Shown here: positions 8,169 to 17,435 of the stretch, in pieces
Layout: each line of letters begins with the position of its first letter
How positions within the stretch are numbered: position 1 is the first letter of the stretch
DNA from: an uncultured bacterium
Lineage (GTDB): Bacteria > Vulcanimicrobiota > Vulcanimicrobiia > Vulcanimicrobiales > Vulcanimicrobiaceae
Direction: 5' to 3'
Assembly: GCA_964244215.1 (NCBI GenBank)
Contig: CAXTIY010000002.1
Span: 1 to 32,438 of the forward strand
Length of the DNA: 32,438 nt
The notes under the pieces: generated by a model
The model's input: only the letters and a program-made list of their open reading frames with translations
Told to the model about the DNA's origin: nothing
Databases searched by the model: none
Made by a program: the position numbers and the translations under genes

Positions 8169-8579
8169 TTAGAAGCGGCGGACGTTCAGCAGGCCCGAAC
8201 TGCGGAAAGCCGTCTCGACACGATCGATGGTATCTGCTTTCGCGTAGTACGCGACGACCGTCCGGCCGCGTTCGAGGGCTTCGGCGTAGTTGCCGATCTC
8301 GCTTTCGGGAATTTCGAGATCGCCAAGGCGATCGTCGACGGCTTCGTTCCGGAAATACGAGGTCATCCGGCGCGAGCTGTTGATGCCCGGCACGCCCGTT
8401 CCCGTGCCGAAGTCGCCACTCGCTATCTCCGAGCCCGCGAGCCCGCTTCCGACCCGGTCCGCGCCTTCGCCGGGCTGTATGACCGTCAGGCCGTCCGCGC
8501 TGAGACCGGCTTCCGATAGCGCGAGCTTCAAGGCCGTGAGATCGCCTTCGGGCGAGAGTCCGGTTACGACGAGTGCCAT
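8169..8579 (-). CDS. hypothetical small cytoplasmic protein
   Basis: 136 aa. ATG 8579 is preceded by GGAGA with a 4-nt spacer. It is the last gene of the ECF sigma operon. The N- and C-terminal ~35-aa segments look like a duplicated small alpha/beta unit joined by a Gly/Ser-rich linker. No family recognised. Confidence 0.55.
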   Translation of the reverse strand: MALVVTGLSPEGDLTALKLALSEAGLSADGLTVIQPGEGADRVGSGLAGSEIASGDFGTGTGVPGINSSRRMTSYFRNEAVDDRLGDLEIPESEIGNYAEALERGRTVVAYYAKADTIDRVETAFRSSGLLNVRRF

Positions 8580-8628
8580 GGGGTCTCCACATTAGCGGCG
8601 AGCGGTAATCGTTGCTTTGGCCGTACGG

Positions 8629-9471
8629 CTAAGAAGATGCTGGTCGATTCATCGCCGAGGTTCCGGGCCCCGGCCCGCTCGTGAACGAGCGGAACGTCGA
8701 TTCGCGGACGAACGCGAGAATCGCGGCCCCGAGACCGACGAGCGCGACGACCGCAAAGACGGCCCAGCCGACCACGGGCAACGATTCTGCCGCCGTGATG
8801 ACGACGAGACCGACCGCCAGCGCTGCGAGCGGAGTCGGCGTGGCCGTCGGGCGCAGCATTTCGTAAAGGCGCCGGCCCAGCAGCAGTCCGAGCGCGGCGT
8901 TCCCGATCCAAAGGCCCGCGCACAGCACGGCCGCTTCGATTGGAATGAGTGGAATTCCGATAACGCTCAGCGCCAACAGCACGCAGATCGGCAGCGCGGC
9001 GACCGTCACGACCGCCCCCGTAATGCCGGAGAGCCCGGGATGCTTCTCCACGCGGTCCATTGCGATCCGCACGCGTAGCGGAAAGAGAAGGAACGCGAAT
9101 GCGACGACCACGTCCCAAGCAAGTTTCTTGAAAAAGCCGCGATCTTGCGCGAAGTTGCCGGTTGCGACCGGGCCGAACCATGGCAGCGATTCAAAATCGC
9201 CCGCCGTCGCGACCCGGCCGTCGATTTGGCAGCCGTCGTCTTGTTCGAAATGGCCGAAGAACGTATGCACGTCTCCATGGATTTGCGCGCCGTCATCGCA
9301 CGTTACCGTGCCGAAAACGACGTCGAGATTGCCATCGATCTCGTCGCCGTCGTTGAGCTCGAGATTGCTGAACCAGACGATCTTGCCTTCGTGGCTCTGC
9401 GCCGATGCAGCCGACGCCGTGAAGCCGAGGCACGTCGCGAAAGCGAAGACCAGAAGCGCGAGGCGGCGCAT
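8629..9471 (-). CDS. membrane protein with an exported beta-helix (polymer-forming/bactofilin-like repeat) domain and a polytopic C-terminal region
   Basis: The start is placed at ATG 9471-9469, which overlaps the anti-sigma TGA by 1 nt (TGATG). Signal peptide MRRLALLVFAFATCLGFTASAASA. Repeat-like GDEIDGNLDVVFGTVTCDDGAQIHGDVHTFFGHFEQDDGCQIDGRV, followed by 4-5 hydrophobic helices. Confidence 0.6.
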   Translation of the reverse strand: MRRLALLVFAFATCLGFTASAASAQSHEGKIVWFSNLELNDGDEIDGNLDVVFGTVTCDDGAQIHGDVHTFFGHFEQDDGCQIDGRVATAGDFESLPWFGPVATGNFAQDRGFFKKLAWDVVVAFAFLLFPLRVRIAMDRVEKHPGLSGITGAVVTVAALPICVLLALSVIGIPLIPIEAAVLCAGLWIGNAALGLLLGRRLYEMLRPTATPTPLAALAVGLVVITAAESLPVVGWAVFAVVALVGLGAAILAFVRESTFRSFTSGPGPGTSAMNRPASS

Positions 9472-10025
9472 CAGCAAAGCTCCGTCGCTCGCGCGCTCGC
9501 GCCGCGCCGGGAGCGGCGGAAGGCGTATAGCAGCGCGACGCACCCCGCCACCACGAGATCGGCCCCGAGCAAACCGCCCATGGCGGCCGTGACGTCGAAG
9601 GTTTCGCCACCGAAGGTGCGGCTGGTCACGTGCGAGAGCGATTGAAGGCTCGCGCCGGCATGGGTGAAGCCCTCACCGATCGTTGCAAGCATGGCTCGTG
9701 CCTGGACGCCACCGAATAAGAGGAACGCACCGATCGTGACCCAGCCGAACGCGACGTACGTGCCGAGCACGGCCAGGAGCGAGGTGCGATGGTGGCGCGG
9801 CGGCGGCAGCGAGCGCACCTCGGCCATCACCGCAAATGTGAAATTCGGAGCCGGTTCGAGCTTACGCGGCGCGAGCAGCAACGCATCGATAACGCGGTAT
9901 TCGGCGAGCAGCGCGGCACACGCGGGGCACGCCTCGGCATGGTTCTCGAAGCGCATCCGAGCGGAAGCCGTAAGCGTGCCCTCGACGTATTCGTCGAGGG
10001 AATCGTTAAAAGACGAGCAGCGCAC
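9471..10025 (-). CDS. membrane-bound zinc-finger (ZAS/zf-HC2) anti-sigma factor
   Basis: 184 aa. GTG 10025 is preceded by AGGAG with a 6-nt spacer. The H-x3-C-x2-C motif (HAEACPACAAL) is near the N-terminus, followed by two hydrophobic helices. It lies immediately downstream of the ECF sigma gene and overlaps it by 20 nt. Confidence 0.8.
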   Translation of the reverse strand: MRCSSFNDSLDEYVEGTLTASARMRFENHAEACPACAALLAEYRVIDALLLAPRKLEPAPNFTFAVMAEVRSLPPPRHHRTSLLAVLGTYVAFGWVTIGAFLLFGGVQARAMLATIGEGFTHAGASLQSLSHVTSRTFGGETFDVTAAMGGLLGADLVVAGCVALLYAFRRSRRGASARATELC

Positions 10026-10650
10026 GTGGTGCTCCTAAGGGCTTATCCGTACGCGAGAGTGCGGCGACCGCAGACTCTTCCCGGTCGCGTAATTTTTGCG
10101 CGAGGGCGAGCTTGCCGCGATGGATCAACGTCTTGACGTTGCCGAGCGAAAGCCCGAGGGTTTCTGCGATCGTTTGATATTCCATGTTGTCGTAATAGCG
10201 TAACGAGAGGACGGTGCGCGTGCGTTCCGGCAGTTCCGCGAGCGCCGCGCGCACGCCGGCCTCGGCTTCGGCACGCAAGATGCCGCCCGCAGGATCGGCG
10301 CTCGGTGACGTATCGGGAAGCGCCGTCTCGAGGCTGCGTTCTTCGCCGAGATCGACGCAGGGAGGGCGGCGCAGCGATTTGCCGAGATGCGTGCGCACGA
10401 CGTTGCGGGCGATGTGGTAGATCCAGGTGGAAAAGCGCCCGAGACTCGGATTGAACGTGCCGAGGTGGGCGTATGCCCGCATGAACGTTTCTTGCGTGAG
10501 ATCCGCTACGTCCGAGGGACCGCGCACGCTCGCGCCGATAAAATTTGTGATACCGCGTTTGTAACGGTCGACTAAGACGGCAAAGCAGTCGCTGTTGCCG
10601 CCGAGTACGAGCTGGATCAACTGCTCGTCGTCCTGCTCTGCGATCGCCAT
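10006..10650 (-). CDS. ECF-type RNA polymerase sigma factor (sigma-70 family, group 4)
   Basis: The start is moved to ATG 10650, directly preceded by GAGGAGGA (10651-10658). 214 aa. Region 2 (FAVLVDRYKRGITNFI...DVADLTQETFMRAYAHL) and region 4 (LPERTRTVLSLRYYDNMEYQTIAETLGLSLGNVKTLIHRGKLAL). Confidence 0.9.
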   Translation of the reverse strand: MAIAEQDDEQLIQLVLGGNSDCFAVLVDRYKRGITNFIGASVRGPSDVADLTQETFMRAYAHLGTFNPSLGRFSTWIYHIARNVVRTHLGKSLRRPPCVDLGEERSLETALPDTSPSADPAGGILRAEAEAGVRAALAELPERTRTVLSLRYYDNMEYQTIAETLGLSLGNVKTLIHRGKLALAQKLRDREESAVAALSRTDKPLGAPRALLVF

Positions 10651-10763
10651 TCCTCCTCGCCTCTTTCTTGTGGCTAGATTACCGGTCGGCGCGTCATAAG
10701 TTTCGCACGCGTAAGAGCGCCCAAAGACTTCCGGCACGCCGTCGGGAACGACATTGCAGTTCC

Positions 10764-12317
10764 ATGCAACTCCGAATCGATACGGGGCTCGTCGGTGAAG
10801 CGCGCGCACTCGCGCTCGCGATCTCGGGGCCTATAAATGACTTCATCGCCGCGCACTCGACCGTCTCCGTCGAGCGCGCCGTGCTGCGGTTGCTCGGCAT
10901 CGACGGCGTCGGACGCGACGATATTCCGTTGCCGAACCTCGTCGCCGAACGCCTGGGCGCCGAGCGTTTGCGCGGCGGCGCGGCGCGACCGATCGGAGCG
11001 CTCGTGGCGCAAACCGGCCGTACGGCAGACGACGTGGCAGCCGCCCTCGGCGACGGCTCGCTCGACGCGGCCGCGGGCGACGACGTTCCCGAGATTGCGG
11101 CACGGGTGGCTTTGGAGAGGACGATCGCGCGCGCGCTCGGCCGTATCGACGCACGCCGCGAGGAACGTGGACGGCTAGTCGCCGCCTACCCGCAATTACC
11201 GCCGCCGCTGCTGTACGTGATCGTGGCGAGCGGCAACATCTACGAAGACCGGACGGCCGCGATCGCGGCGGCGGAAGCGGGCGCGCAGATCATCGCGGTG
11301 ATCCGCTCGACGGGGCAATCGTTGCTCGATTTCGTGCCGTACGGCGCGACGACCGAAGGCTTCGGCGGCACATACGCGACGCAAGAAAATTTTCGCATCA
11401 TGCGCGAGGCGCTCGACGCGGTCTCGCAGCGTCTCGGCCGTTACGTAATGCTCACGAATTACGCGAGCGGCCTCTGCATGCCCGAGATCGCAACGATGGC
11501 GGCGCTCGAGCGGCTCGACATGCTGCTCAACGACTCGATGTACGGGATACTTTTTCGCGACATCAATATGAAGCGCACGTTCGTCGATCAGCACTTCTCG
11601 CGCATGCTCAACGCCCGCTCGGGCATCATCATCAATACGGGCGAAGATAATTATCTTACCACGGCCGACGCCGTCGAACAGGCGCCCGCGGTGCTCGCTT
11701 CGCAATTCATCAACGAAGCATTCGCGCATCGCGCGGGTATGCCGAACGCGCAGATCGGCCTCGGCGACGCTTACGAAATCGACCCGTCGCTCGAAGACGG
11801 TTTTCTCTACGCCATCGCGCAAGCGCAACTCGCGCGGCAAGTCTTCCCCGATGCGCCGCTTAAATATATGCCGCCGACGAAGCACATGACGGGCGACGTT
11901 TTTAAGGGACATCTCATCGACGCGATGTTCAACCTGACGTCGGTCATGACGAAGCAGACGATTCATCTTTGCGGCATGATGACGGAAGCCATTCATACGC
12001 CGTTTCTCGGCGATCGCGCGCTCGCGCTCGAAAATGCGCGTTACGTGATGTCGACGGCGCGCCATCTCGGCGACGATATCGAATTCAAGCGCGACGGCGT
12101 CGTCGAGCGCCGCGCGCAGAGCGTCTTGCGCGACGCGCACGCGTTGCTCGAGCGTGTGGCGGATCTCGGCTTGATGGCCGCGATCGATGCGAAGACGTTC
12201 GCCGACGTGAAGCGTTCGCCCGACGGCGGGCGCGGCTTCGACGGCGTGTTCGAGCGGGCGGCGGACTATTGGAACCCGTTCGCGGAAGCCCTCGCACCCG
12301 AGGCGCTCGCGCGGTGA
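10764..12317 (+). CDS. kamD: lysine 5,6-aminomutase alpha subunit (TIM-barrel subunit)
   Basis: 517 aa from ATG 10764. HSTVSVERAVLRLLGIDGV near the N-terminus, and the overall length and conservation fit KamD. Its partner, the B12-binding subunit gene, lies downstream. Confidence 0.8.
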   Translation: MQLRIDTGLVGEARALALAISGPINDFIAAHSTVSVERAVLRLLGIDGVGRDDIPLPNLVAERLGAERLRGGAARPIGALVAQTGRTADDVAAALGDGSLDAAAGDDVPEIAARVALERTIARALGRIDARREERGRLVAAYPQLPPPLLYVIVASGNIYEDRTAAIAAAEAGAQIIAVIRSTGQSLLDFVPYGATTEGFGGTYATQENFRIMREALDAVSQRLGRYVMLTNYASGLCMPEIATMAALERLDMLLNDSMYGILFRDINMKRTFVDQHFSRMLNARSGIIINTGEDNYLTTADAVEQAPAVLASQFINEAFAHRAGMPNAQIGLGDAYEIDPSLEDGFLYAIAQAQLARQVFPDAPLKYMPPTKHMTGDVFKGHLIDAMFNLTSVMTKQTIHLCGMMTEAIHTPFLGDRALALENARYVMSTARHLGDDIEFKRDGVVERRAQSVLRDAHALLERVADLGLMAAIDAKTFADVKRSPDGGRGFDGVFERAADYWNPFAEALAPEALAR

Positions 12318-12318
12318 G
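12309..12318. repeat. left copy of the 10-bp direct repeat GCGCGGTGAG at the kamD / cassette junction
   Basis: Exact 10-mer containing the kamD TGA (12315-12317) and the GTG of the next gene (12314-12316). An identical 10-mer lies at 14481-14490. Confidence 0.9.
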
Positions 12319-13495
12319 TGGGCTGGAATTGCAGAAAATACTTGAGCGGGGCGAATCACAGCGCGCTGAATTCAAGGAAAACACGAAGGCGGCATTACGC
12401 GAAGCGGTCTGTGCGCTCGCCAACGATCTTGAAGGGAGCGACGAAGTCGGGTATCTGCTGGTTGGCATAAACGACGTCGGACGTTTCTGCGGAGTCGCAA
12501 TCGACGATACCATGCTTGAGATCCTTGCGCAGATTCGCTCCGATGGGGCACTACAACCGCTGCCGAGCATTTCTGTCGAGCGGGTTGAGTTAGGCGGTGA
12601 TTCATGTGCCGTCGTGCATGTGCGCCCTTGTGATGACCCGCCGATGCGTTATCGAGGGCGCGTCTGGGTTCGTGTCGGATCAACGACGCAGATTGCAAGC
12701 CCGCAGGATGAGCGCGTCCTTGTCGAGCGGCGACGCCGTACAAACCTGCCGTTTGACCATAGAGTGGCCGAGAGTGCTACTCTTGATGACCTGGCTATCG
12801 ACTTCTTCGAGAAAACCTATCTGCCGGCGGCGTATGCTCCCGAAATCTTGCAAGCAAATGGTCGAACGATCTTCGCACAACTAGAAGCTCTGCGCTTCGC
12901 CTTCAAAGAACTTCCTACAGTTGGCGGAATTTTGGTGAGCGGGGCTGATCCTCTACGTTTCGTTCCCGGCGCATACTTGCAGTTCGTAGTCTTCGCGGGT
13001 AAAGATGTAACCAGCGGCATCGTCGATGAGAAGGTTGCATCCGGCCGCATCGACTCCATCGCTACGGCGGCGCTAGAGCTTCTTCGTCTCACGCTTGCTG
13101 TTTCTCTTCGACAAGAGGAAGGCGAGCGAGATGTTAAAGTGCCTCGCTATCCCCTTGTGGCATTAACGGAAATTACTATCAACGCATTGATGCATCGCAA
13201 CTATGATGGAACGAATGCGCCAGTGCGAGTCTATGCCTTCGCTGATAGAATCGAGATTTCAAATCCCGGCGGTCCATTCGGAACTGTCAATAAGTCAACG
13301 TTCGGCCAGCGCGGCATCACGGATTACCGCAATCCCATTCTTGCGGATGCATTAAAGACGCTCGGCTTTGCCCAACGCTTCGGATACGGTATCGAGGCGT
13401 CACGCAAGGCACTTCGGGCGAATGGCAATCCAGAACCTCGCTTTGAAGTCGAACGTGATTTCGTGAACGTAGTCATCGGAGCTGCGAATGCCTAG
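12314..13495 (+). CDS. AlbA_2 (Schlafen-like, 'divergent AAA') + HATPase_c_4 domain protein, often annotated as a RecG-like putative DNA-binding or ATP-binding protein
   Basis: GTG 12314 overlaps the kamD stop (GTGA). 393 aa. N-terminal ERGESQRAEFKE...GYLLVGINDVG...AVVHVRP...PMRYRGRVWVRVGSTT has the AlbA_2 pattern. C-terminal EITINALMHRNYDGTNAPVRVYAFADRIEISNPGGPFG...DYRNPILADALKTLGFAQRFGYGI has the HATPase_c_4 pattern. The gene has lower GC than its flanks. Confidence 0.7.
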   Translation: MSGLELQKILERGESQRAEFKENTKAALREAVCALANDLEGSDEVGYLLVGINDVGRFCGVAIDDTMLEILAQIRSDGALQPLPSISVERVELGGDSCAVVHVRPCDDPPMRYRGRVWVRVGSTTQIASPQDERVLVERRRRTNLPFDHRVAESATLDDLAIDFFEKTYLPAAYAPEILQANGRTIFAQLEALRFAFKELPTVGGILVSGADPLRFVPGAYLQFVVFAGKDVTSGIVDEKVASGRIDSIATAALELLRLTLAVSLRQEEGERDVKVPRYPLVALTEITINALMHRNYDGTNAPVRVYAFADRIEISNPGGPFGTVNKSTFGQRGITDYRNPILADALKTLGFAQRFGYGIEASRKALRANGNPEPRFEVERDFVNVVIGAANA

Positions 13496-14489
13496 CATCG
13501 CATTCTTCAACAACAAGGGTGGCGTCGGTAAAACGACCTTAGTTTACCACTTGGCTGCCATGTTTTCCGATTTGGGCGTTCGCGTTCTGGCTGTCGATTT
13601 GGACCCACAAGCCAACCTGAGCGCTATGTGTCTTCCCGAAGAAGATTTCCTAAAAATGTGGCCGGATGGGCCACACCCCGATACGCTCTTTGGTGCCGTC
13701 GCACCGATTATGGAGGGCACGGGTGATATAGCGCCGGTTTTCATTAGCGAGATAGATCCCGCTTTTGGATTGCTCGCGGGAGACTTGAGTCTTAGTTCCT
13801 TCGAGGGCGATCTCGCGCAGGCTTGGCCGAACGTGCTCGATAGACGCATCAACGCTGTTAGGCAAACAACGGCTTTCGCCCGGATTATCGAGGCGGCACG
13901 CGCCGAGTGGTCTGCTGACCTCGTACTTATTGATGTTGGTCCAAATCTCGGAGCGTTGAACCGAGCCGCTCTTTTATCAGCTACGCATGTTATAACGCCG
14001 CTAGCACCGGATCTTTTTTCGCTTCAAGGTCTGCGCAATCTTGGTCCCGCGCTCTCGTCTTGGCGTGAAGAGTGGAAAGAACGCTACGATCGTAATCTCA
14101 ACCGCGGCGTGTCCTTGCCGGTCGGAGCGATGCAACCACTCGGCTATATAGTTCTTCAACACGCCATGCGTCTCGATCGACCGGTTCAAGCTTACGGTCG
14201 TTGGATGGAGCAAATTCCAGGCGCTTTTCAACATGAAATCATGGATCGGGCAGGCGTTTCGCCGCTTCATGGACCGCTTGCTTTAGCGACCCTGAAAAAT
14301 TATCGTAGTTTGATGCCCCTCGCTATGGAAGCTCGCAAGCCAATGTTTGCATTACGTCCTGCAGATGGAGCGCTCGGGGCGCAACAACAGGCCGTCAGTC
14401 GCTGTTACGAAGATTTTCGAACCCTTGCAATGAACATCGCAGATCGGTTGGAGATCGATGTTCCTGTAGCGCATGGCGTTGCGCGGTGA
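13488..14489 (+). CDS. ParA/MinD-family P-loop ATPase with an extended C-terminal region
   Basis: 333 aa. Deviant Walker A IAFFNNKGGVGKTTLVYHLA, then VLAVDLDPQANLS, and Walker B-like DLVLIDVGPNLG. ATG 13488 overlaps the upstream stop by 8 nt. The TGA overlaps the kamE GTG. GC is lower than in the flanks. Confidence 0.8.
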   Translation: MPSIAFFNNKGGVGKTTLVYHLAAMFSDLGVRVLAVDLDPQANLSAMCLPEEDFLKMWPDGPHPDTLFGAVAPIMEGTGDIAPVFISEIDPAFGLLAGDLSLSSFEGDLAQAWPNVLDRRINAVRQTTAFARIIEAARAEWSADLVLIDVGPNLGALNRAALLSATHVITPLAPDLFSLQGLRNLGPALSSWREEWKERYDRNLNRGVSLPVGAMQPLGYIVLQHAMRLDRPVQAYGRWMEQIPGAFQHEIMDRAGVSPLHGPLALATLKNYRSLMPLAMEARKPMFALRPADGALGAQQQAVSRCYEDFRTLAMNIADRLEIDVPVAHGVAR

Positions 14490-14490
14490 G
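14481..14490. repeat. right copy of the 10-bp direct repeat GCGCGGTGAG at the cassette / kamE junction
   Basis: Exact 10-mer containing the ParA-like TGA (14487-14489) and the kamE GTG (14486-14488). Confidence 0.9.
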
Positions 14491-15223
14491 CGGACTCGTT
14501 AAGCCCTACGGCGATACGCGCGACGACGGCAAGGTGCAACTCTCGTTCACGCTGCCGCTCGAATGGAGCGAAGCGGCCGACGAAGCGGCGCGGCAGCTCG
14601 TTGCGAAGATGGGTTTTTCGGAAGTCGCGGTCGCCGAAGGTCGGCCGATCGCGACCGGGTTTTCGTTTTTTATCGTGTACGCGAGTACGCCCGTCGCGAT
14701 CGACGCGAGCGCGATCGTCGCGCCGTCGGCGAAATCGCACGCGATGTCGATGGACGAAATCGACGAGTTCGTGCGCGAGCGGCTCGGCCGTAAGATACGC
14801 ATCGCGGGCGCGTGCATCGGCACCGACGCCCACACGGTCGGCATCGATGCGATCCTCAATATGAAAGGGTATAAGGGCGATTACGGGCTCGAGCGTTATA
14901 AAGAATTCGTCACGTTCAATCTCGGCAGTCAAGTTTCGGTCGAGGCGCTCGTCGCGTTCGCCAAAAGCGAGCGAATAGATGCGTTGCTCGCATCGCAGGT
15001 CGTTACGCAGAAGGGTAGCGACGTTGCGAATTTTACCGCGCTTTCCGAATTACTCGAAGCCGAAGGTATGCGCGACGAAGTGCTGCTAATCGCCGGAGGG
15101 CCGCGCATGACGAACCTGCTCGCGACGGAGCTCGGTTACGACGCGGGCTTCGGGCGCGGCACCGTGCCGAGCGACGTCGCCGCGTTCGTCGCGCAACGCA
15201 TGGCCGAGCGCGTTACGGTTTAA
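14486..15223 (+). CDS. kamE: lysine 5,6-aminomutase beta subunit (cobalamin- and PLP-binding)
   Basis: 245 aa. KPYGDTRDDGKVQLSFTLPL N-terminus, base-off B12 motif GTDAHTVGID (DxHxxG), and the PLP-lysine region LNMKGYKGDYGLERY. Confidence 0.85.
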   Translation: MSGLVKPYGDTRDDGKVQLSFTLPLEWSEAADEAARQLVAKMGFSEVAVAEGRPIATGFSFFIVYASTPVAIDASAIVAPSAKSHAMSMDEIDEFVRERLGRKIRIAGACIGTDAHTVGIDAILNMKGYKGDYGLERYKEFVTFNLGSQVSVEALVAFAKSERIDALLASQVVTQKGSDVANFTALSELLEAEGMRDEVLLIAGGPRMTNLLATELGYDAGFGRGTVPSDVAAFVAQRMAERVTV

Positions 15224-15227
15224 ACGT

Positions 15228-16721
15228 TTGCCGCGTAAGGCGTCGTTGCGTGCGGCTTTCGTGCGCTGTGCGTTTGTCGCGCTCTGCATGCTCGCGCCCG
15301 CGTCTTCGGCGCTCGGCGCGGCGCCCGCGACGGCCGTTCGCCCGTCGGATGCGGGCGATGCCTGGAGCTCGAGCGAGGTTGCGACGTTGCGTCGCGATCT
15401 CGATGCGATGCTCGCGAGCGATCCGGCGGTGCGCGGCGCGCACGTCGGCGTGGCCGCACTGATTACGAAGTCGGGAGCGCCGCTCTACGAACATAATGCG
15501 ACCGACGAATTTCAACCGGCGAGTACGCTCAAGCTGCTCGTGGGAAGCGTCGCGCTCGATGATCTCGGGACCGCCTACCGATTTCGAACAGTGCTCGAGC
15601 AGAGCGGAGATCGCCTCATCTTGCGGCCGGGTGGCGACCCGCTTTTGCGTTCGAGCGATCTCGAAGCGGCAGCGGATGCGGTGCTCGCCGCGGGAATGTT
15701 GCGCGTGGGCGCAGTTGCCGTCGATGCGTCGCATTTCGAGGGACCGCCCTATCCGAACGGCTGGGTATGGGACGACTTTTCATACGATTACGCCGCACGC
15801 GTGTCGGCCGCGGCGGTTAACGAAAACGTCACGACCTATTCCGCGTTGCCCGGTGCGAGAATCGGCGATCCGATTCGCCTTGCTGCGGGGCGAGCGTTCC
15901 TCGAGCCGCAGACTGCGTGCCCGGGTCTCGTCAATCGCGCCGTTACGGCGCCTGCGAGCGAAGCGTCCAGGCTCGATACGTTGACGCTTGCGCCCGATTG
16001 TACGGCGATCACCGGTCTTTTGCCCGCGAACTCGTCGTCCGCGTTCGTCGACGTTGCGGTCGGCGATCCGGTCGAAAATTTGCGGAGCGTTTTTACAGAT
16101 CGGCTAATCGGCCCGACGCATCGCTTCGCTATCGGTGAAGACGGGTCGCAGTCGAAGCCGGCCGTAGCCGGCCGGACCATCTGGCAACACGATTCGGATC
16201 CACTCGGCGCGTGGCTCGGGCCGTCGTTTTGGATTCCCTCGGATAACTTCGTTGCGGAGCAGCTTTTGTGCGAAGTCGGTTTCGCAGATCATGGCGGAGC
16301 GGGCTCGACGGAGCGCGGTCTGGACGCCGAACGAACGTGGTTACGTGCGAACGGCATCGATCCGGCGACAACGACGCTCGCCGACGGAAGTGGCCTCTCG
16401 CAATACGATCGGATAACACCACGCGACCTCGTCGCGATTCTGCAACACGACTGGATCGGCCAGAATCGCAATCTCGTTCTCGATTCGCTACCGATCGGGG
16501 GCGTGCGCGGCACGATCGAAGGTATAGCGGGTACGGCCGCCGCGGGACGCGTGTTTGCGAAGACGGGGAGCATGTCGCACGTCCGTGGGCTCGCGGGCTA
16601 TCTTTCGACGCTACGCCATGGCGCCGTGACGTTCGCCTTTAGCGTCGACGATTGGAACGGCGATTACGGGCAGCTAGCGGCGTTGCGCGCGAGAGTGCTC
16701 GCTCGGCTTATCTCGGATTGA
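15228..16721 (+). CDS. dacB: D-alanyl-D-alanine carboxypeptidase/endopeptidase (PBP4, peptidase S13)
   Basis: 497 aa with an alanine-rich signal peptide. SxxK (PASTLKLL) and KTG (FAKTGSMSHVRGLAGYL) motifs. TTG start is assumed. Confidence 0.8.
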   Translation: MPRKASLRAAFVRCAFVALCMLAPASSALGAAPATAVRPSDAGDAWSSSEVATLRRDLDAMLASDPAVRGAHVGVAALITKSGAPLYEHNATDEFQPASTLKLLVGSVALDDLGTAYRFRTVLEQSGDRLILRPGGDPLLRSSDLEAAADAVLAAGMLRVGAVAVDASHFEGPPYPNGWVWDDFSYDYAARVSAAAVNENVTTYSALPGARIGDPIRLAAGRAFLEPQTACPGLVNRAVTAPASEASRLDTLTLAPDCTAITGLLPANSSSAFVDVAVGDPVENLRSVFTDRLIGPTHRFAIGEDGSQSKPAVAGRTIWQHDSDPLGAWLGPSFWIPSDNFVAEQLLCEVGFADHGGAGSTERGLDAERTWLRANGIDPATTTLADGSGLSQYDRITPRDLVAILQHDWIGQNRNLVLDSLPIGGVRGTIEGIAGTAAAGRVFAKTGSMSHVRGLAGYLSTLRHGAVTFAFSVDDWNGDYGQLAALRARVLARLISD

Positions 16722-16724
16722 GTA

Positions 16725-17435
16725 TTAGCATTCCACAGAATCGACTATGCCGCTCACCTTTCTCGATTGCATGATAATGCCGAAGGTACGTGTGCAACTC
16801 TGCGCCTTGTTCGGTACCGGGCCGACGTAATAGTAGACTCCGTCGCCGAGGTCTTTAAAAAACCATGATGGTTTACCCAAGACGTGCTTGCGAGCGACGC
16901 TCGGCGCGGAAGTCCCGATCTGCGCGATAGCGTACGGTTCGCCGAATCGCGCGAGCACTTCGTCCGCGGGCGAACCGATGCCGATTCCGGCGATGGTCAT
17001 CAGGGGCAGATGCCGCGCCGGTATGGACCTCGGAAGGGTGGAGGAATAACGCATCACCGAAAGCGTTATGCCGCCGCTACCTTTCGGATTTTGCATCGTT
17101 ATGACGATGCGTTGGGTGGTATCGGCCAACACCGCCGCATCGATCACGTTACTCGGACCGCCATGGAAGTGCCCGACGCTGGTTCCATAGATGCGCGCGG
17201 CGCGATCGATCCGCTCCTCTTCCGCTTCGGACGGAACGGCGTTCGTATTGCTGACGCCGAAGCCATGATAGAGCAGAGGCTCGTGATGCAGCGAGAAGAG
17301 GGAGACCGAGCCGTAGGCATGGGCGATTAGGAAGCGAACGTTCATTCGCTCGTCGTCTCCTCGCGCGCTTTTGGCCGCAGTAAGCAAGACGATGCCGCTG
17401 AAAACGCAGGCAACCGCGCGCCCGACACAACTCAC
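16725..17435 (-). CDS. hypothetical protein (possibly secreted), low-GC orphan
   Basis: 236-aa ORF with no recognisable family. The start is ambiguous. GTG 17435 gives a signal-peptide-like N-terminus but has no SD. ATG 17345 is preceded by GAGGAGA about 10 nt upstream. Two hand-counted lines give ~50% GC. Confidence 0.5.
   Translation of the reverse strand: MSCVGRAVACVFSGIVLLTAAKSARGDDERMNVRFLIAHAYGSVSLFSLHHEPLLYHGFGVSNTNAVPSEAEEERIDRAARIYGTSVGHFHGGPSNVIDAAVLADTTQRIVITMQNPKGSGGITLSVMRYSSTLPRSIPARHLPLMTIAGIGIGSPADEVLARFGEPYAIAQIGTSAPSVARKHVLGKPSWFFKDLGDGVYYYVGPVPNKAQSCTRTFGIIMQSRKVSGIVDSVEC

Follow-up and report, generated by a model that had tools for sequence, protein, structure and literature searches.

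Introduction

Prokaryotic Schlafen (pSlfn) proteins of the HisKinase and HisKinase-HTH classes are accessory or 'backup' effectors in bacteriophage exclusion (BREX) and BREX-related (DUF1156/DUF499/helicase) loci, according to two papers (PMC12839542, PMC13056530). In the latter, Schlafen-HisKinase and Schlafen-HisKinase-HTH are the commonest prokaryotic Schlafen architectures, Ex4(E/D)xK is the catalytic motif of prokaryotic Schlafen tRNases, and the characterised Schlafen domains are Mn-dependent tRNases, the one tested being inactive on DNA (PMC13056530). In the present study, we analyze a gene pair, g1 and g2, whose first member is a predicted protein of this kind and which is located between kamD and kamE, the two lysine 5,6-aminomutase subunit genes of an Eremiobacterota (Vulcanimicrobiota) bacterium. 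The analysed stretch, hereafter the window, comprises 32,438 nt (GCA_964244215.1, contig CAXTIY010000002.1, positions 1-32,438, forward strand), and its kam locus is designated WIN. The pair is a foreign module that is flanked by a duplicated kamD/kamE junction, is fused in frame at both ends and keeps the stop/start overlaps, and its insertion site is polymorphic and reused across the phylum.

How does this locus compare with described systems? Accessory pSlfn-HisKinase effectors, promoterless cassettes and integration hot spots are already known. The pSlfn effectors are resembled by g1, in which an AlbA_2/Schlafen domain with Ex4ExK is combined with a minimal histidine-kinase-like HATPase_c_4 domain, and by homologous pairs in other phyla that are located at pglX/pglZ or in DUF1156-methylase loci with 4-nt overlaps. 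However, the host operon in the window is metabolic (B12 aminomutase), no BREX or other defence genes are found in the 32 kb, and neither junction duplications nor borrowed start and stop codons are reported for these effectors. Integron gene cassettes are likewise small, promoterless units of one or two genes that depend on an upstream host promoter, as the pair would here, and that are gained or lost as a unit. In contrast to integron cassettes, the window contains no attC-like imperfect inverted repeat, attI or integron integrase, and the 'attachment site' is a duplicated stop/start overlap of host coding sequence.

Free-standing homing endonuclease genes of phages, such as T4 mobE between nrdA and nrdB, provide another parallel, in that a selfish gene with patchy presence and precise boundaries sits between two subunit genes. 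Unlike them, the pair contains no recognised homing-endonuclease domain, its Schlafen domain belongs to a family that has proved to be an RNase in every case tested, and the pair resides on a bacterial chromosome, not in co-infecting phages; moreover, homing does not duplicate its target. Two known processes, deletion between short direct repeats and illegitimate recombination of the short-homology or homology-facilitated type, match the 10-20-nt target-derived repeats at both junctions and the precise loss that leaves a single copy. Such recombination usually affects scattered sites, whereas here it would concern one intra-operon junction phylum-wide, with in-frame joins at both ends. Finally, integration hot spots and defence islands also hold alternative cargos between two conserved genes, as is the case here (A and B cassettes, glyoxalase, polysaccharide genes), but they normally lie between operons or by tRNA genes rather than in an intra-operon 4-nt overlap of subunit genes.

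In the literature, we found no description of a hot spot in the 4-nt overlap between two subunit genes inside a metabolic operon, of a cassette whose start codon, Shine-Dalgarno (SD) sequence and stop codon are supplied by a duplicated host junction, or of the turnover of two deep cassette lineages at one junction with concertedly evolving repeats. The constant pairing of a Schlafen protein with a ParA-like protein was not found as a named system either. The original prediction, which was drawn from the window alone, had stated that no described element class is known to insert in this way; we likewise found none for the style of insertion, but the cargo is of a described kind, namely a Schlafen-HisKinase(-HTH) effector as presented in the Schlafen papers. 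At this locus, a defence-type module lives in the 4-base overlap of two subunit genes and breaks neither, using the duplicated junction as its own start and stop. In addition, a single junction provides a phylum-wide natural experiment, with empty sites, two deep lineages, decayed copies and unrelated cargos, on how operons acquire and lose promoterless genes and maintain translational coupling. If the module does excise and re-integrate at this junction, this would constitute a new mode of gene mobility that requires no encoded recombinase.

A duplicated junction flanks the gene pair

In the window, kamD, g1, g2 and kamE are four gap-free genes with the same direction. The features of the locus are as follows.

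10764..12317, + strand: kamD, lysine 5,6-aminomutase alpha subunit (NCBIfam and Pfam)
12300..12303, + strand: SD-like GAGG, 10 nt before the junction GTG (direct reading)
12306..12325, + strand: left junction copy, CTCGCGCGGTGAGTGGGCTG (kamD last codons and TGA, g1 GTG and codons 2-4)
12314-13495, + strand: g1, Schlafen-HisKinase-like protein, 393 aa (Pfam)
13478..13481, + strand: GGAG, 6 nt before the g2 ATG, within the g1 3' end (direct reading)
13488-14489, + strand: g2, ParA/MinD-type ATPase, 333 aa (Pfam)
14478..14497, + strand: right junction copy, GTTGCGCGGTGAGCGGACTC (g2 last codons and TGA, kamE GTG and codons 2-4)
14486..15223, + strand: kamE, lysine 5,6-aminomutase beta subunit, B12-binding (NCBIfam and Pfam)
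15228..16721, + strand: pbp, PBP4-type D-Ala-D-Ala carboxypeptidase, next after kamE (Pfam Peptidase_S13, 6.2e-73)

The kamD TGA (12315-12317) overlaps the g1 GTG (12314-12316) in the form GTGA, g1 and g2 overlap by 8 nt, and the g2 TGA (14487-14489) overlaps the kamE GTG (14486-14488), again as GTGA. The window has exactly two copies of the 10-mer GCGCGGTGAG (12309-12318 and 14481-14490), each of which contains one of the two GTGA overlaps. The copies are 2172 nt (724 x 3) apart. Similarity extends beyond the 10-mer, and 15 of 20 positions are equal when 12306-12325 and 14478-14497 are compared in register. V-S-G-L opens both g1 and kamE, and A-R-stop closes both kamD and g2. In-silico removal of one copy generates ...GAGGCGCTCGCGCGGTGAGCGGACTCG..., which is essentially the empty junction of a close relative, L179. 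The GAGG at the left junction lies ahead of g1, and the same GAGG precedes the kamE GTG in the empty site of L179; direct reading reveals no GAGG counterpart upstream of kamE in the window. These observations bear out the anatomy given in the original prediction, including the duplicated 10-mer with its TGA and GTG, the degenerate extension with shared V-S-G-L and A-R-stop, the spacing by a multiple of three that allows a canonical overlap to be restored, the GAGG at the left junction only and the 8-nt overlap between g1 and g2.

Can such a repeat arise by chance? The 10-mer occurs 0.39 times on average in shuffled controls and is found at least twice in 7 of 100 shuffles. As a second measure, in-register runs were scored in 1902 within-locus pairs of xTGA junction-like sites, from which orthologous junctions were kept out. 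Runs of at least 10 nt appear in approximately five distinct unrelated cases, or roughly 0.3% of the pairs. One junction-like repeat of this chance type is an in-frame 10-mer, CAACATGAAG, that is shared by kamD (DINMKRTF) and kamE (ILNMKGYK) of L013 at 5722 and 9040. Taken alone, the single repeat of the window is suggestive. It is made secure by the existence of an empty site and by independent cassette copies that carry repeats of their own (12 nt in L013, 14 nt in L172). The chance frequency of roughly 0.3% speaks for a fortuitous repeat or a chimeric assembly, but the comparative data refute both: an empty site with a single copy exists, 12-nt and 14-nt repeats are found in other lineages, and the same architecture is shared by over 10 independent contigs that stem from different projects. 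A chimera, which had been named as a possible source of error, is excluded because several independent assemblies (L081/L092, L082, L013/L018, L172/L173, L174-177) share the arrangement.

Close relatives contain the empty site

The window was compared with 80 kamD-containing loci from reference genomes and with close relatives from metagenomes, to which labels such as L179 were given. kamD and kamE are adjacent in nearly all 80 loci, and in Eremiobacterota they mostly form an xTGA overlap. Approximately 25 Eremiobacterota relatives with adjacent or xTGA-overlapping kamD and kamE represent empty sites. As had been proposed, the gene pair is foreign to this operon; most relatives lack it and have kamD and kamE overlapping by 4 nt, and an ancestral arrangement shared by all relatives does not apply.

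The empty site with a single junction that had been predicted is present in the close relatives L179 and L180, which were obtained from Joint Genome Institute (JGI) metagenomes. Their KamE and KamD proteins are 96% and 92.5% identical to those of the window, and synteny is equal on both sides. In these genomes, kamD and kamE overlap directly at a single junction, CTCGCGCGGTGAGCGGCCTG (in context, gaggcgCTCGCGCGGTGAGCGGCCTGatcaaaccg). The BLAST alignments of the left and right window flanks overlap by 24 nt on the L179 junction. The L179 20-mer matches the left copy at 18 of 20 positions and the right copy at 16 of 20, of which 13 are contiguous (GCGCGGTGAGCGG). This alignment indicates that the target was duplicated over at least 13 nt, probably approximately 20 nt. 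Furthermore, it identifies the g1 start GTG AGT GGG CTG (V-S-G-L) as a diverged copy of the kamE start GTG AGC GGC CTG, and the last codons and stop of g2 as a copy of the kamD tail.

Orthologous cassettes (g2 85-89% identical) with the same fusion points as WIN are found in L081/L092 and L082, in which the repeats are partly decayed. In a host tree built from the kamD 3' end, kamE and pbp, the topology ((WIN,L082)96,L179)80,L081)99 nests the empty L179 among filled genomes. Such nesting requires either one gain followed by a precise loss or two precise gains. In either case, the change is accurate to the single nucleotide and regenerates or consumes the canonical overlap.

The kamD/kamE junction is filled repeatedly across the phylum

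Filled kamD/kamE junctions are also present in L013/L018, L172/L173, L174-177, L178, L083, L093 and L185/186, and the Eremiobacterota clade of the pair sits almost always at this junction. All kam-sited cassettes group with their nearest relatives in a single clade (98% bootstrap), which consists of lineage A (100%, including the window) and lineage B (98%), and the pair therefore entered the phylum once. Raw identities had hinted at independent imports from other phyla, given that the g2 protein of L013 is 56% identical to that of the window and 57-59% identical to those of other phyla, but the bootstrapped tree rejects such imports.

Within the phylum, cassette distribution is patchy, and the cassette tree partly disagrees with the host tree. 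The same junction is occupied in lineages whose g2 proteins are only 55-57% identical. In the kamE tree, filled loci are scattered among empty ones, and the filled L178 is sister to the empty L007; the flanks of these two loci are 94% identical, and 15 nt are cleanly replaced by 2243 nt. A host clade with distances of at most 0.2 nt (WIN, L185 and L174) contains three very different cassettes. L185, at a host distance of 0.19 from the window, carries a fused and decayed lineage A cassette with 59% identity in g2, and L174, whose host is WIN-like, carries a lineage B cassette with 56% identity to the window in g2 and 44% in g1. The kamD 3' end and the kamE 5' end of L174 are host-like to within 100 nt of the junction, and the swaps are thus not explained by long co-transferred homology arms. 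Allele exchange via long flanking homology was rejected on this ground, as no co-transferred flank is visible in L174.

Repeats at both junctions are observed in other lineages, including a 12-nt repeat in L013 (TTACGCGCATGA) and a 14-nt repeat in L172 (CGTTGCGCAGATGA), which differ from each other at three positions that co-vary in both copies. The duplicated length is therefore not constant: it is 10 nt exact (approximately 20 nt ancestrally) in the window clade, 12 nt in L013 and 14 nt in L172, and no repeat is found in L174 or L178. The boundary between g2 and kamE is a 4-nt overlap in all ten filled loci examined (10/10). Decayed copies in L083, L093, L178 and L185 indicate that the pair is dispensable.

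In addition to the A and B cassettes, the kamD/kamE junction accommodates unrelated cargos, which include a glyoxalase gene, polysaccharide genes and a 152-nt insert. Taken together, the compared loci show that the junction is a genuine intra-operon hot spot at which insertion is unusually precise. The 152-nt spacer is found in L028 (7546-7697) and has an imperfect flanking repeat of approximately 20 nt (GAGACGGTT(T)CGCG(C)TGAGC). One gene further on, at kamE/pbp, L028 contains a lineage A cassette (8410-10656) that is flanked by the 10-nt CCGCGTGACG. A clean transposition was considered for this copy and rejected, given that the tails of g2 and kamE are similar over 8 nt, which can account for the 10-nt repeat, and that the locus also has the 152-nt scar.

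Several further observations concern these occupants and the tails at the junction. In L185 (2253-4004) and L186 (413-2164), a single 583-aa open reading frame (ORF) joins the Schlafen portion of g1 to a g2 that runs from approximately residue 20; this decayed lineage A product lacks HATPase_c_4 and Walker A and overlaps kamE by ATGA. The L028 g1 has a frameshift near 8695 that may be a long-read assembly error. The glyoxalase/bleomycin-resistance-type gene of L181-L184 (approximately 1190-1660) encodes 120 aa on the opposite strand; kamE in these loci is 90% identical to that of the window, the GC content of the insertion is host-like, and no junction repeat is present. The capsule and polysaccharide genes (Caps_synth x2, PS_pyruv_trans) occupy the minus strand in L031 (1214-2104) and L083 (2521-5273), and those of L083 are accompanied by a 5'-truncated g1 and an intact g2. 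A lineage A cassette outside the kam site, which has its own TAA stop, is found in L094 (505-972), next to a degenerate insertion sequence (IS)-type transposase ORF, and in L095 (1795-4315), next to HipA-like and PIN toxin genes. Across the phylum, kamD tails are hypervariable as regards both their length and their sequence. In the empty-site loci L022, L029 and L032, kamD has long C-terminal tails with SAQDDK- or VLSGAP-type peptides, which look like translated repeats of the repetitive extragenic palindromic (REP) or miniature inverted-repeat transposable element (MITE) type inserted at the junction.

The module differs in composition and lacks autonomous signals

The guanine and cytosine (GC) content is 54-55% in the cassette and 62-64% in kamD and kamE, and 300-nt windows range from 52 to 58% inside and from 60 to 72% outside. 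At third codon positions (GC3), the cassette has 51-54%, which is below all other confidently called genes of the window, as opposed to 76-79% in kamD and kamE. The compositional discontinuity that the original prediction had proposed to check is thus present, although its hand-counted values (approximately 47-53% versus 65-72%) exaggerated the drop. The cassette GC3 is 16-25 points under that of the flanks in every Eremiobacterota host, and cassette GC follows host GC at a constant offset. As this offset persists in every host and the clade is old at the same junction, low GC does not show a recent arrival. The earlier reading of the module as horizontally acquired is supported as to its foreignness, whereas its low GC is no mark of recency, the clade being old and phylum-specific.

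Scans of the window agree with the expectation that the pair carries no promoter, terminal inverted repeat, transposase or integrase. Promoter-like and terminator-like sites do not exceed the shuffled expectation, no terminal inverted repeats or attC-like hairpins are found at the cassette ends, and no transposase or integrase is found among the called genes of the window scanned against Pfam. Rfam and tRNA scans of the window give no matches. The window thus contains neither the transposase gene and terminal inverted repeats of an insertion sequence or transposon nor the 3' attC and nearby integrase or attI of an integron cassette. Furthermore, the 32-kb window contains no pglX, pglZ, brxC, DUF1156 or DUF499 gene and is not a BREX locus. 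Searches of plasmid and phage collections return only distant ParA matches (27-35%) and no evidence for a plasmid or phage vehicle. Sequenced plasmids and phages are thus practically devoid of the g2 family.

g1 and g2 are a Schlafen-type protein and a ParA-like ATPase

By domain content, g1 is a predicted prokaryotic Schlafen nuclease-type protein, and g2 is its conserved, putative ParA-like ATPase partner. Pfam SLFN_AlbA_2 (PF04326, 1.2e-15) covers g1 residues 14-128, and HATPase_c_4 (PF13749, 7.9e-18), a HisKinase-like domain, covers residues 302-388. Residues 14-21, ESQRAEFK, contain an intact Ex4(E/D)xK motif (E14, E19 and K21). Thus, g1 combines the AlbA_2 domain, the catalytic motif and the C-terminal histidine-kinase-like ATPase domain of the pSlfn HisKinase(-HTH) class. 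A Pfam scan detects no LAGLIDADG, GIY-YIG, HNH, His-Cys-box, PD-(D/E)xK or EDxHD domain in g1 or g2. The best PDB relative of g1 is 3lmm, which is labelled 'uncharacterized'. PADLOC assigns no defined defence system to the pair and gives g1 only partial matches to pAgo-associated Schlafen proteins.

The g2 protein contains NNKGGVGKTT at residues 8-17, a deviant Walker A motif (KGGxGK[ST]), and a family-specific C-terminal half. It matches Pfam AAA_31 (1.6e-27) and CbiA (3.3e-14), and its best PDB relative is the uncharacterised 3pg5 (1.1e-30), with Soj/ParA structures also matched. The deviant Walker A motif and the ParA-type fold place g2 among the ParA/MinD (SIMIBI) ATPases, and its scores against the NCBIfam ParA, RepA and MinD models are all far under the cutoffs. 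Is g2 then a ParA protein of a partition system? This identification was rejected in view of those scores, of a partner that is a Schlafen protein rather than ParB, and of a family that is nearly absent from plasmids. The g2 family comprises at least 8000 clusters (90% identity) at E below 1e-60, with 55-60% identity across many phyla. Six to seven additional C-terminal residues are found in kam-clade copies only. An exact-protein look-up for the window g2 returned no record.

In other phyla, the pair occurs in two settings, in keeping with the suggestion that it be sought in other contexts. A g1 homolog lies directly upstream of the g2 homolog in essentially all 95 loci that have a g2 homolog, and this constancy defines a conserved two-gene system. 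The pair either stands alone after a 330-390-nt upstream gap or, often, is embedded in BREX and BREX-related loci and overlaps both of its neighbours by 4 nt; in the latter setting, it is located at pglX/pglZ (L127, L136 and L139) or inside DUF1156-methylase/helicase loci (L141, L161, L120, L151 and L157). The GC content of the BREX-embedded copies matches that of the host, and no junction repeats are found at these copies or at the flanks of the other copies outside the phylum. The BREX-type contexts agree with those described in PMC12839542, and a constant ParA-like partner of Schlafen-HisKinase proteins is not mentioned in the searched passages of PMC12839542 and PMC13056530. Judging from these contexts, the two-gene module is probably anti-phage, and the pair of Schlafen-HisKinase and ParA-like ATPase, which has no name so far, is a candidate anti-phage system of two genes.

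Proposed gain and loss of the module by short-homology recombination

Bases ~12319-14490 are an accessory two-gene module that was inserted in the GTGA overlap of kamD and kamE. We propose that it is gained and lost by short-homology recombination of the host, and we assign a probability of approximately 0.6 to the explanation as a whole. The insertion duplicated approximately 13-20 nt of the junction. As a consequence, g1 starts on a copy of the kamE start and initial codons, downstream of the GAGG that stands before kamE in the empty site, and g2 ends on a copy of the kamD last codons and stop, again overlapping the kamE GTG. The pair would be transcribed from the kam operon promoter and translated by termination-reinitiation along kamD, g1, g2 and kamE. 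It may act as a phage-triggered RNase system of the abortive-infection type or as a selfish module of that type. Excision would take place between the direct repeats by host recombination. The module would re-enter on DNA from relatives that already includes a remnant of the kam junction, by illegitimate recombination of the short-homology or homology-facilitated type. We suggest that such cycles of excision and re-entry would explain why the repeat copies are identical within a genome yet differ between genomes.

Short-homology recombination at the duplicated junction is favoured because the repeat length varies (10-20 nt), conserved ends, inverted repeats and a recombinase are lacking, and deletion between direct repeats is known. 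The original prediction had offered a target-site duplication or a microhomology-mediated integration. Of this, the duplication stands, at approximately 13-20 nt and with exact lengths of 10, 12 or 14 nt depending on the lineage; a duplication of fixed length made by a transposase fits less well, since the length varies between lineages.

Several observations weigh against the proposal. In L174, L178 and L185, no junction repeat is found and kamD reads into a cassette-borne leader with its own SD, which means that a single mechanism does not account for all gains. The L094/L095 copy outside the kam site shares part of the g2 tail (x-[A/S]-x-stop), and the repeat may therefore partly be pre-existing microhomology instead of a duplication. 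For L179, parsimony does not distinguish one gain with one precise loss from two precise gains. In model bacteria, cassettes re-integrate inefficiently when the homology spans 12-20 nt, and neither a circular nor an excised form of the module was observed. It is the gene anatomy from which co-transcription and translational coupling would follow, and it is the homolog contexts, in BREX and BREX-related loci, that point to a role in phage defence.

What other processes could generate this pattern? An ancient single entry at kamD/kamE, with vertical inheritance, many losses and gene conversion between the junctions that keeps the repeats perfect, would accommodate the single clade of kam-sited cassettes (98%), the rough correspondence of lineages A and B to two host groups, the 4-nt overlap of g2 and kamE in all filled loci examined, and the constant GC offset from the host. 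It is nevertheless improbable, as cassettes that are 56-59% identical conflict with the tree of a tight host clade (WIN, L185 and L174, at most 0.2 nt apart), gene conversion would have very short substrates in repeats of 10-20 nt at a distance of 2.2 kb, and between L007 and L178, whose flanks are 94% identical, 15 nt are cleanly exchanged for 2243 nt. A comparably low likelihood is given to a recombinase-less, junction-specific integrative cassette that uses the kamD-stop/kamE-start overlap as an attachment site and cycles, to the exact nucleotide, between empty and filled states and from one related genome to another. Each cycle would re-create the in-frame fusions that provide the cassette with its start codon, ribosome-binding site and stop codon, and cycling might be aided by the proteins of the cassette itself (a nuclease/GHKL-type ATPase and a ParA-like ATPase) or by an unrecognised host activity. 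A transposase or integrase acting in trans, which would cut the junction in a staggered manner and leave true target-site duplications, is less plausible still. Perfect repeats made of each host's own junction (10 nt in WIN, 12 nt in L013 and 14 nt in L172) and the CCGCGTGACG-flanked L028 copy at another junction speak for such an enzyme, but the repeats are variable and unusually long (10 to approximately 20 nt), terminal inverted repeats and conserved end sequences are absent, repeats are not seen at the copies in other phyla, no enzyme of this kind is encoded in the window, and the L028 repeat is explicable by the tail similarity described above.

Two further possibilities assign the position to the activity of the pair. 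In a homing-type selfish element, cleavage of the empty junction by the g1 nuclease would be followed by a repair that copies the pair in from a filled allele. The intact nuclease motif, the repeated occupation of the same intergenic point, the tight boundaries and the little co-transferred flank are compatible with homing; we regard it as quite unlikely, however, because the characterised Schlafen domains are tRNases and the one tested is inactive on DNA, as noted above, homing leaves no duplicated target, the same pair is found at many unrelated sites in other phyla, and unrelated genes also land at kamD/kamE. The least credible of these alternatives is that the pair serves the aminomutase operon, for example as a ParA/SIMIBI-type chaperone or regulator of the B12 enzyme, and that its position is adaptive. 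B12 mutases do use SIMIBI-class NTPase chaperones (MeaB), the pair is almost always at the kam operon in this phylum, and the coupling is preserved. Such a service is very unlikely because most kamDE loci, including those of close relatives, lack the pair, truncated or fused copies persist, and homologs in other phyla reside in BREX-type loci or alone, with no kam genes; in addition, g2 is of the ParA/MinD type and not of the MeaB type. Thus, short-homology recombination of the host at the duplicated junction is the reading that we prefer.

Genomic setting of the kam operon

The assignment of kamD and kamE as lysine 5,6-aminomutase genes is based on domain content and on scores above the equivalog cutoffs for both proteins. 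KamD, the alpha subunit with a pyridoxal phosphate (PLP) TIM-barrel, scores 774 bits against the NCBIfam equivalog Lys_5_6_mutase (NF052384, cutoff 600) and matches Pfam Lys-AminoMut_A (PF09043, 8.9e-233). Its longest ORF begins at TTG 10668, and the ATG at 10764 yields 517 aa, the same length as in kamD of L081 and L179. KamE, the beta subunit with OAM dimerisation and B12-binding domains, scores 338.6 bits against the equivalog Lys_5_6_beta (NF052385, cutoff 280) and matches Pfam OAM_dimer (PF16554) and B12-binding (PF02310).

The gene string kamD-kamE-pbp is kept in order in L081, L083, L174, L179, L181 and L185. In Eremiobacterota (window, L081, L174 and L179), a divergent extracytoplasmic function (ECF) sigma factor gene, a zf-HC2 anti-sigma protein gene and a DUF8173 gene precede kamD-kamE; in the window, the minus-strand region at 9471-10809 is upstream of the kam genes (10764-16721). 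Other genes of lysine fermentation (kamA, kdd, kce and kal) are not seen near kamDE in these four loci, which suggests that the aminomutase has a role other than classical lysine fermentation. Downstream, a 236-aa ORF without a Pfam match (16725-17435, minus strand) lies between pbp and a zinc alcohol dehydrogenase gene in the window. In L179, pbp directly adjoins the dehydrogenase gene, and this ORF is thus a second presence/absence difference between L179 and the window.

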